A stretch of 4,727 bases of DNA from Escherichia coli. Its GTDB lineage: Bacteria; Pseudomonadota; Gammaproteobacteria; Enterobacterales; Enterobacteriaceae. The notes below the pieces were generated by a model that was not told the origin of the DNA, did no database searches, and saw only the letters and a list, made by a program, of their open reading frames with translations. Shown piece after piece: positions 899 to 4,203 of the stretch. Made by a program: the position numbers and the translations under genes. Every line of letters begins with the position of its first letter. Position 1 is the stretch's first letter. The DNA lies in NCBI RefSeq assembly GCF_011045215.1, contig NZ_CP049203.1. The stretch is one strand, 5' to 3'.

Positions 899-1036
899 GA
901 ATATGGATTTTCATTTTTGTGATATAAATCAAAAAAAATCAATCGTGAGTAGTTCCAAGAGAAACATACGCGAACACTTCATCTAATCGAAAACGAGTGA
1001 AAGATATTTCCAAGAAAAATAAATAATAAGGGCTGC

Positions 1037-1072
1037 GTTTGGGAAACGTACAATAATTTCCGTTTCCCAAAC
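1037..1072 (-). terminator. Stem-loop (12-bp stem, 12-nt loop) between cer and the bacteriocin promoter; candidate terminator or insulator for leftward transcription
   Basis: gtttgggaaacg (1037-1048) pairs with cgtttcccaaac (1061-1072). On the minus strand it is followed by GCAGCCC then a T-rich run (TTATTATTTATTTTT). The T-run is not immediately adjacent, so this is only a candidate. Confidence 0.3.
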
Positions 1073-1115
1073 CGCCCCCAATAAGGCCGCCACACTACAG
1101 CTTTTGCATTAACAC

Positions 1116-1340
1116 ATTTACCATAATCCCTTAATTGTACGCACCGCTGAAACGCTCTCAGACGCTTTCTGACGCAAAAACCGTAAAAAGAGATGTTTTC
1201 CCCCGGGTAAACCGAAAAAATGCGTCAGGAACGTTTTCAGCGCGTTGCATGACTATGCATGAAACTGAATGGCGATCGGTTTGGGCGCGTCCGGTGTCTC
1301 AAAGGCTTATTTTCGGATGTTTTCGTCCTCCGGCGTCGTT
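1116..1340 (-). other. cer: cer-like Xer site-specific recombination (multimer resolution) site: XerC/XerD core 1116-1145 plus ~190 bp accessory region
   Basis: Minus strand 1145-1116 reads GGTGCGTACAA-TTAAGGGA-TTATGGTAAAT, identical to the ColE1 cer XerC arm, 8-bp central region and XerD arm as I recall them. The accessory sequences would extend rightward on the + strand; the far boundary is approximate. Confidence 0.75.
1245..1262. promoter_or_regulatory. Candidate ArgR box within the cer accessory region
   Basis: ttGCATgactATGCAtga resembles the ARG box TnTGAATwwwwATTCAnw (two half-sites, 4-bp spacer) and lies about 100 bp from the XerC arm, where cer carries its ArgR site. The match is imperfect. 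Confidence 0.3.
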
Positions 1341-1980: not shown

Positions 1981-2226
1981 TCACCTGCGCCTCGCCGGCT
2001 GCCAGGTAAACGTGTTCTCTGCGGCACGATATGCTTTTGTTCGTTGAGCCTTTGCGCTTCTCGCTCTGCGTTCTGCCCGAATCATTCTCAAAACTTTTGC
2101 ACGCACTTTTCGCTTAACTTCCCGTGGCAGCTCTTCTTTGTCGGATAACTGCAACTGCGCAGCCTGTAAGGCATACGCATCACTGATACGCTTACGTTCT
2201 GCCACTGTCAGTTTCACCCAATACAT
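1981..2226 (-). CDS. Hypothetical small basic protein (81 aa), possibly ribbon-helix-helix-like DNA-binding or relaxosome-accessory remnant
   Basis: ORF with a G-rich Shine-Dalgarno-like sequence (GGGGGATAGGT) before the ATG. The protein is strongly basic and helix-prone (KRKVRAKVLRMIRAERRARSAKAQR). Its N-terminus WVKLTVAERKRISDAYA resembles the strand-helix start of RHH proteins. No firm homology; GC-rich DNA produces chance ORFs. Confidence 0.35.
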   Translation of the reverse strand: MYWVKLTVAERKRISDAYALQAAQLQLSDKEELPREVKRKVRAKVLRMIRAERRARSAKAQRTKAYRAAENTFTWQPARRR

Positions 2227-3086: not shown

Positions 3087-3796
3087 CAGGGGCTGGCGAA
3101 AGCGGTCGCGGCTCGTCCGTGAGCGTTTTCGCCAGCAGACAAGCCCGGAGAGCGCGTCAGGACATGGGCTGAGAGAAACACCGGCGCGTAAGTGCTCAAA
3201 TCAGACTGGCGGAGACATTCCGCTTCCTCGCCCACTCGCTCACTACGTTCGGTCGCTGGGGCTGCGGCGAGCGGTGACGGCTCTCTCATAACGGCGGACA
3301 GTTTATCCACAGAATCGGGGGATAAGCCGGACAGAACATGTGAGCAAAAAGCACGAACAAAAAGGCCGCGGCGGGGCCGTTTTTCCATAGGCTCCGCCTC
3401 CCCCTGGCGAGCTTCACACTTTTCGAAGCTGCAAGCCTAGGATTTGACGAAACCCGATGTGGCTTCAAGATCATCACCGTTTCCGGTGAATCGCTCCCCC
3501 CTGCGACCTCCACATTCCCGCCATATCGTTTGCCGGATACCTTACCGCCTTTCCCCTTGCGGGACCGTGGCGCTTTCTCATAGCTCACGTGCATCTCTGC
3601 GGTATCTCGGGCGACTTAGGCAGTTCGCTCCAGGTCTGGCTGTATGCAGGACCCCCCCTTTCAGCCTGACTGCTGCGCCTGTTCCGGTAACTGTTCTCTT
3701 GAGGCCAACCCGGAAAGACACGCCTTAACGCCACTGGCAGCAGCCACTGGTAACTGGATTTGCAGAGCGAGATGTATACAGATGGTTACAGAGTTC

Positions 3797-3825
3797 TTGA
3801 GTAACAGCCCTCTTATGGCTACACT
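3797..3825 (+). promoter_or_regulatory. RNA I promoter (-35 TTGAGT, 17-bp spacer, -10 TACACT)
   Basis: Positionally equivalent to the pBR322 RNA I promoter (TTGAAG-N17-TACACT), with the transcript start about 7 nt downstream. Confidence 0.6.
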
Positions 3826-3831
3826 AGAGGG

Positions 3832-3940
3832 ACAGTTTTTAGGTAATCTGCGCTCTGCGATAGCCAGTTACCATTGGAACAATGAGAAGGTGAGATGTCT
3901 CATCGCTCCCGGAAAAAACCGCCTTACGGCGGTTTTTTCC
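3832..3940 (+). ncRNA. RNA I (antisense replication inhibitor)
   Basis: Begins ACAGTTTTTAGGTAATCTGCGCTCTGC (pMB1 RNA I begins ACAGTATTTGGTATCTGCGCTCTGC) and ends in the hairpin plus U-tract aaaaaaccgcc-ttac-ggcggtttttt (3913-3936). About 108 nt, antisense to the 5' end of RNA II. Confidence 0.8.
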
Positions 3941-3953
3941 GTTTACAAGCCGA

Positions 3954-3982: not shown

Positions 3983-4203
3983 GAGGATCTTTTGCGATCC
4001 GCCTGAAACTCATCACCGTAATTCCGTCTGTGGAATAAACGCAACCTTTTGCACATTATCGGTTAAATCATAACGAATTTGCATATACAACTGCGGTTCA
4101 AAGCCAGTAAACTGGGGGGCGAAGCCCAACCGTTACCAGCTTTGGTGACGTAATTTCCTGAAGTTCCAGCGTAGAACACCAGTTACCAAAAAACGAACAC
4201 AAC

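Follow-up and report, generated by a model that had tools for sequence, protein, structure and literature searches.

A predicted cer-type multimer resolution site, probably lacking a ColE1-type Rcd, on an Escherichia coli bacteriocin plasmid

The architecture of the ColE1 cer site consists of an XerC-binding arm, an 8-bp central region and an XerD-binding arm, and the 8-bp central region is the mark of a class of sites at which XerC alone exchanges strands, to the stage of a Holliday junction (PMC5357621). The psi site of pSC101 and the chromosomal dif site are likewise XerC/XerD sites with 11-bp arms; both have central regions of 6 bp, psi employs ArcA in place of ArgR, whereas dif lacks an accessory arm and requires FtsK (PMC5357621). 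In all ColE1-like plasmids cer points the same way as RNAII, and phased A/T tracts that lead to curvature are a described feature of the family (PMC2831885). ColE1 cer is further associated with the promoter Pcer, which has a 15-bp spacer, and with Rcd, an RNA that forms a single stem-loop (PMC5935869); loss of either XerC or XerD de-represses Pcer (PMC2831885). A 15-nt Rcd sequence is 87-93% identical among ColE1, ColA, pRK2 and CloDF13 (86.7% between ColE1 and CloDF13), and the most distant Rcd-like sequences reported are 53% identical over this 15-nt motif (PMC5935869). The cer core of pMB1/NTP14, which lies upstream of the EcoRI restriction-modification genes, has been described as a hot spot at which hybrid sites form and genes are captured (PMC7315355).

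Our study reports on a 4,727-nucleotide stretch of Escherichia coli DNA (contig NZ_CP049203.1, assembly GCF_011045215.1), the whole of which is referred to here as the window. We conclude, with a probability of roughly 0.85, that positions 1116-1324 on its minus strand are the plasmid's single cer-type multimer resolution site, probably one without a ColE1-type Rcd. The call of a resolution site draws on sequence identity and family homology, on spacing and phasing, and on orientation; which proteins the site depends on, how it recombines and that it lacks Rcd are predictions. A site of the psi or dif type was considered and rejected, given that the central region in the window has 8 bp and is accompanied by an ARG box and an accessory arm of 180 bp; psi is set apart from it by the published description.

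A search with the 30-bp query GGTGCGTACAATTAAGGGATTATGGTAAAT gave a single match in the window, at 1116-1145 on the minus strand and with 0 mismatches, while none of 200 shuffles of the window gave a match. Read on that strand, the core is GGTGCGTACAA-TTAAGGGA-TTATGGTAAAT and agrees with ColE1 cer and with ColK at 30 of 30 positions; the same 30-mer is found at 3909-3938 of the ColE1 record (NC_001371, in which cer occupies approximately 3700-3938) and at 8133-8162 of pColK-K235 (NC_006881), within the ckr site. The cer-type layout of an 11-bp XerC arm, a central region of 6-8 bp and an 11-bp XerD arm is present in the window, and by sequence its 8-bp central region places the core in the cer class. 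The XerD arm is unchanged in 17 of the 17 family members examined, and the central regions of relatives come in variants of 6, 7 or 8 bp. CloDF13 parB (NC_002119, 4773-4800) retains the XerD arm and the overall architecture of the window site, but its core reads GGTACCGATAA-GGGATG-TTATGGTAAAT, with a 6-bp central region and a diverged XerC arm.

Table 1. Features of the putative resolution site and of its XerD-side flank, in window coordinates.
Feature	Position	Strand	Basis or remark
Hairpin and U-rich tail, probable intrinsic terminator for leftward transcription leaving cer	1013..1079	-	folding, sequence
XerD-binding arm, TTATGGTAAAT	1116..1126	-	same in ColE1, ColK, CloDF13
8-bp central (crossover) region, TTAAGGGA	1127..1134	-	same in ColE1, ColK
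XerC-binding arm, GGTGCGTACAA	1135..1145	-	same in ColE1, ColK
Promoter-like match CTGAGA-16-TACAAT, -10 inside XerC arm	1134..1161	-	9/12 match; probably chance
Accessory sequences (presumed PepA/ArgR wrapping arm), ~179 bp	1146..1324	-	PLSDB homology, phased A/T tracts
Imperfect inverted repeat, positional equivalent of the ColE1 Rcd stem-loop	1148..1249	-	arms 1148-1176 and 1221-1249
Equivalent of the inferred ColE1 Pcer -10 hexamer: TGAAAA, not TAAAAT	1234..1239	-	alignment
ARG box (candidate ArgR site), palindrome TGCAT-GACT-ATGCA at 1246-1259	1244..1261	.	alignment and spacing

The candidate ARG box, TGCATGACTATGCA at 1246-1259, is the sole site of its kind in the window. Because palindromes of the form TGCAT-N4-ATGCA are expected by chance at 0.26 sites per window when one mismatch is allowed, the palindrome taken alone is weak evidence, and it is its position that counts. 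The distance from its centre to the XerC arm is 107 bp, compared with 106 bp in ColE1, 107 bp in ColK, 108 bp in CloDF13 and 107-108 bp in 10 further family members. In an alignment of 14 sites (the window, ColE1, ColK, CloDF13 and ten plasmids chosen to span the range of identities) the palindrome is the best-conserved element of the accessory arm and is kept in all 14 sequences. Of the 16 specified positions of the ARG-box consensus, the window and CloDF13 parB each match 10, and ColE1 matches 12.

A sensitive BLAST search with 1100-1345 found matches in 3,220 PLSDB plasmids, 381 of which cover at least 80% of the query; the common extent of these matches is 1116-1324, with about 180 bp of family-homologous accessory sequence on the XerC side. 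The global identity of the accessory arm to ColE1, ColK and CloDF13, the three experimentally studied sites, is only about 44%, and the arm is therefore not of the ColE1 type; the arm of ColK ckr, which is 44% identical to that of the window, is ColE1-like, with 75% identity to ColE1. At the same time the arm is 78-97% identical to sequences in hundreds of small enterobacterial plasmids of Escherichia and Salmonella, none of them annotated; in the likewise unannotated cer sites of E. coli EC14 p3, E. albertii pEA5_3 and pRHB06-C19_4 the arm is 92-98% identical. Judged by these identities, it belongs to a widespread, unannotated cer-family lineage that is distinct from that of ColE1. The A/T tracts of the window nevertheless stand at the ColE1 distances from the XerC arm (-90.5, approximately -65, approximately -52.5, -42, approximately -6 and -176/-166), whereas the DNA between the tracts differs from that of ColE1, and their power at a period of 10-11.2 bp reaches 1.71, where shuffles average 0.25 and 1 of 1000 attains the observed value. 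An open reading frame overlaps the arm at 1135-1467, but it has no Pfam hit and is interrupted by stop codons in most relatives, so that the conservation of the accessory arm is not protein-coding.

These results bear out the original prediction of a cer-like multimer resolution site on each point open to a sequence-level test, namely a 30-bp core equal to that of ColE1 cer with its 8-bp central region, and a TGCAT-N4-ATGCA ArgR-box-like element about 100 bp away. The span that had been proposed, 1116-1340, is exact at its left edge and slightly generous at its right, where family-wide homology stops at approximately 1324. An alignment to ColE1 cer, ckr and parB had been suggested as a check, with an accessory region unrelated to cer-family sites as the outcome that would count against the idea; the identity with ColE1 and ColK turned out to be confined to the core and did not extend to the arm, and the arm is nonetheless related to the family through its thousands of plasmid matches.

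The place of the site on the plasmid also follows that of ColE1. The Rfam scan of the window returned RNAI, at 3835-3942 on the plus strand (44.7 bits, just under the threshold of 47, E = 4e-6), and two sub-threshold hits only. With RNAI on the plus strand RNAII runs leftward and, since the ori segment and the cer core alike run opposite to their orientation in the ColE1 record, cer and RNAII point in the same direction, as the rule for ColE1-like plasmids requires (PMC2831885). The gene order, ori-rop-(oriT remnant)-cer-bacteriocin-immunity, mirrors that of ColE1, with the site between the backbone and the colicin module in both and facing the bacteriocin module as had been predicted. The presence of the cer site confirms the window as a ColE1-family bacteriocin plasmid with a canonical stability module.

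Homology of the arm with more than 3,200 plasmids, phased A/T tracts and a fixed orientation to RNAII together point to a cer-family XerCD/ArgR/PepA resolution site, and suggest a model of its activity along the lines of the reviewed mechanism (PMC5357621). Host XerC and XerD would bind the two 11-bp arms that flank the 8-bp central region, while ArgR would bind the ARG box, whose centre is 107 bp away from the XerC arm. ArgR and PepA would then wrap the curved accessory arms, about 180 bp each, of the two directly repeated sites of a dimer into a synapse that allows intramolecular recombination only. Within this synapse XerC would exchange one pair of strands to form a Holliday junction, and the cell would resolve the junction, returning dimers to monomers. 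Dependence of the window site on XerCD, ArgR and PepA is a prediction from sequence, PepA binding having no usable consensus, and that on ArgR and PepA is extrapolated, because the accessory arm is so distant from the three studied sites.

The position of Pcer and Rcd in ColE1 bears on whether the window has an equivalent. In the checkpoint of ColE1-like cer sites the Rcd transcript, a stem-loop of about 70-90 nt, is induced in multimers and stimulates tryptophanase. Rfam has no Rcd family, and ColE1 cer itself gives noise hits only; searches of full-text literature for Rcd sequence strings found only unrelated primers. All ColE1 15-mers that are identical to CloDF13 at 13 of 15 positions sit upstream of the core (-113 to -46), and none lies in or beyond it. 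The stretch from the ARG box to the XerC arm folds as one long stem-loop in ColE1 (z = -4.4), CloDF13 (-4.2), ColK (-5.0) and a Raoultella site (-3.9), whereas 75 nt starting from within the ColE1 core fold weakly (-12 kcal/mol). Two candidates with a 15-bp spacer are found in ColE1: TTGCAT-15-TAAAAT at the edge of the ARG box (3795-3821) and TGAACG-15-TACAAT in the XerC arm. Diagrams from the Summers laboratory fit a position between the ARG box and the XerC arm. From the identity figures published for Rcd, our own alignment and folding, and these diagrams, we infer that ColE1 Rcd very probably maps between the ARG box and the XerC arm and not across the core.

At the corresponding place the window has no promoter-like match. 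The hexamers homologous to those of ColE1 are ATGCAT and TGAAAA, the second of which has neither the A at position 2 nor the T at position 6 that are key to a -10 hexamer, and the 15-nt Rcd motif GGGTGGTTTGTTGCC is matched at only 5 of 15 positions in the aligned columns, less than the 53% reported for the most distant Rcd-like sequences (PMC5935869). Of the three features attributed to Pcer and Rcd in ColE1, the window lacks TTGCAT-15-TAAAAT and GGGTGGTTTGTTGCC, and in place of the strong stem-loop it has a weakly folding, imperfect inverted repeat; ColK ckr has features of the Rcd type, and CloDF13 parB, unlike the window, retains TAAAAT, 13 of 15 positions of the Rcd motif and a 16-bp stem. 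We consider a ColE1-type Rcd to be probably absent from the window, with the proviso that the position of Pcer and Rcd in ColE1 is itself deduced. If confirmed, a common cer lineage seemingly without the hallmarks of Pcer and Rcd would mean that the Rcd checkpoint is not general to cer sites.

An alternative is that the site resolves multimers and also encodes a diverged Rcd-like RNA, running from approximately 1228 to 1150 on the minus strand from a weak or non-canonical promoter at the edge of the ARG box and folded around the stem CTGACGCA/TGCGTCAG. These two sequences form the perfect 8-bp core, at 1169-1176 and 1221-1228, of an imperfect inverted repeat of 29 nt that stands exactly where ColE1, ColK and CloDF13 have their long Rcd stem. 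The three classical sites build this stem from different sequences (GCGATCGCG versus CGTTTCCGGCGG), which suggests that its position is conserved and its sequence free. The equivalent RNA of the window folds at -26.1 kcal/mol, a modest gain over shuffled sequences (z = -2.0, with 6 of 200 shuffles matching its stability), but all lineage members that share its accessory arm fold weakly (z = -1.5 to -2.0), and in three of them (L006, L008 and L009) the 8-bp stem has changes that are neither paired nor compensated. For 14 family members RNAalifold yielded no consensus structure (4 pairs, -0.34 kcal/mol), an almost empty result that we attribute to stems in different registers in the sub-lineages. 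Together with the defective -10 equivalent and the poor motif match, these observations make a diverged Rcd unlikely, and we retain the reading of a resolution site probably without Rcd.

The original prediction had an Rcd-like RNA transcribed leftward through the core towards a hairpin at 1037-1072. The hairpin is there, with 12-bp perfect arms at 1037-1048 and 1061-1072 within an extended stem at 1031-1079, while the conserved features of Rcd map upstream of the core and speak against the RNA. The hairpin folds with z = -3.0 on the minus strand (96 nt) and z = -4.1 on the plus strand, and a U-rich tail, UUAUUAUUUAUUUUUCUU at 1030-1013, follows it on the minus strand only; an automatic terminator scan missed it because its 12-nt loop exceeds the limit of the scan. 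The same hairpin is found at unrelated intergenic places in other plasmids. It is most likely a one-way terminator, which would shield the LexA/SOS-controlled bacteriocin promoter from RNAII read-through and from transcription originating in cer. A second Xer site was considered for the hairpin and rejected: its loop has CGTACAAT in common with the XerC arm, but nothing resembling an XerD arm accompanies it. In another small plasmid (L017; NZ_CP047008.1, approximately 1000-1250) the halves of the 1031-1079 hairpin are split by about 200 bp, and the left half lies 20 bp after a cer core with a dif-like XerD arm, TTATGTTAAAT; the arrangement suggests an insertion or deletion within the hairpin loop.

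In a model that follows the route of the original prediction, a promoter overlapping the XerC arm (CTGAGA-16-TACAAT, 1161-1134) would be occluded by XerCD and would fire leftward once freed, giving an RNA of about 100 nt that passes through the core and ends at the 1079-1013 terminator, and that would either replace Rcd or read towards the bacteriocin gene. The match is the only one resembling a sigma-70 promoter at 8 of 12 or better on the minus strand of 1100-1360, and the strong hairpin with its U-rich tail lies about 50-110 nt downstream. The EcoRI promoter PR, which takes TTAAGG of the central region as its -35 hexamer, offers a precedent for a cargo promoter built on the cer core (PMC7315355), and ColE1 Pcer is de-repressed on XerC or XerD loss (PMC2831885). 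However, the match is at chance level, being the only hit in 900-1420 where 0.7 are expected; TACAAT owes its presence to the XerC arm, to which it belongs; the -35 hexamer varies among relatives (CTGAAC, CTGAGC, CTCAAC and TTCAGC); the body of the would-be RNA, 1115-1080, has no homologue in any plasmid; and the conserved Rcd features of the family sit upstream of the core. We regard such a promoter as very unlikely. The chance is slim, too, that the cer lineage of the window has lost the Rcd/indole checkpoint and that an XerCD-occluded promoter in the XerC arm may replace it here, although an RNA fired through the core to the terminator on departure of the recombinases would then constitute a dimer sensor embedded in the core.

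On its XerD side the site coincides with the boundary between backbone and cargo. Every search shows homology with other plasmids ending at 1115/1116, at the outermost base of the XerD arm, which pins this boundary to a single base, and the exact cer-cargo junction of the window was found in none of 72,556 plasmids or 5,426 complete E. coli genomes. The cargo DNA past the XerD arm is unique and is not homologous to any cer flank. In ColE1 this flank holds exc2, and in the window it holds the terminator hairpin and an SOS promoter. The closest sites with an identical core are those of EC14 p3, in which the 60 bp upstream of the core are also identical to the window, pEA5_3 and a ZYB62 plasmid, each with different DNA past the core; pRHB06-C19_4, the best backbone relative, has the central region TACTGATG, and its cargo too differs directly after the XerD arm. 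The difference in the central region of pRHB06-C19_4 indicates that exchange at the core has occurred, and the simplest reading is that cargo modules are exchanged at cer cores, where the invariance of the XerD arm throughout the family would explain why the break shows at the end of that arm and not in the central region. The occurrence of one site with different cargo past its XerD arm would make cer cores points of cargo exchange, an idea already in the literature for EcoRI plasmids (PMC7315355). As in the window, the core of pMB1/NTP14 abuts the cargo on its XerD side; there the central region supplies the -35 of the cargo promoter, while in the window the terminator hairpin and a separate LexA-controlled promoter lie between core and cargo (PMC7315355).

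The coincidence of the XerD end with the mosaic junction, and the exchange at the core recorded in TACTGATG of the best backbone relative, would also suit an inactive relic or recombination scar at the point of cargo acquisition, with stability provided by copy number and by bacteriocin/immunity addiction, but this is extremely unlikely given that all defining features are intact (core 30/30, ARG-box spacing, A/T-tract phasing), that the site is the sole Xer site on a high-copy replicon, and that the accessory arm is 96-98% identical in many independent plasmids, which argues for purifying selection.

The bacteriocin-like cargo gene occupies 59-808 on the minus strand and encodes a protein of 249 amino acids that is rich in Gly, His and Ser at its N-terminus and contains a T4-lysozyme-like domain (Pfam PF00959, E = 1e-9); the PDB matches of the protein are to T4 lysozyme, among them an entry for a pesticin-lysozyme chimera, matched in its lysozyme part. 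A LexA box, CTGT-N8-ACAG, lies ahead of the gene at 852-867, in a promoter region (851-937) that is 79% identical to that of colicin E1 in ColE1. Relatives of the protein occur in 74 PLSDB plasmids; the best matches listed have 87.6% amino-acid identity, and every relative is labelled hypothetical. An open reading frame of 159 amino acids (4204-4683, minus strand), which follows the bacteriocin gene on the far side of the circular junction, has a hydrophobic N-terminus and no family hit; it is probably the immunity protein. In the related plasmid CP057467.1 a colicin-release lysis gene follows the counterpart of this reading frame, and none is present at 4000-4204 of the window.

Directly beyond the accessory arm, 1357-1700 is dense in direct and inverted repeats, among them three copies of GCAGCACCGTAA and five resembling GGCACCGTTACAGTGC, and 1415-1680 is 84-87% identical to the intergenic region between traM and the SLT transglycosylase gene of F-like conjugative plasmids. 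The region resembles an F-type oriT, in which the repeats would be those bound by TraM and TTTTGCGACAGGTGTGGTG, near 1668-1690, would be the nic-like sequence; an oriT of this kind has been reported for plasmids of the pEC156 type. Rfam gives a weak match to traJ-II at 1791-1855 on the minus strand (29.5 bits, threshold 40, E = 0.015), which could be a remnant of an F-like transfer region or simply chance. At 1941-2245, where the best backbone relative CP057986.1 has a gene of the ProQ/FinO family, the window has unrelated DNA, with a very basic reading frame of 81 amino acids and no family hit at 1981-2226 (minus strand). Two tandem-like repeats of about 100 bp follow at 2275-2374 and 2397-2498; they are approximately 75% identical to each other (cross-matching with L005), and both contain GC-rich hairpins that end in AAAACATATCCTGTCCCG. 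At the other end of the window, in positions 1-40, an inverted repeat that looks perfect, GATGTATTTCATC...GATGAAATACATC, separates the stop codon of the bacteriocin gene from the immunity gene; it is 87% conserved in CP057467.1 and, by analogy with colicin operons, is probably an attenuating terminator.
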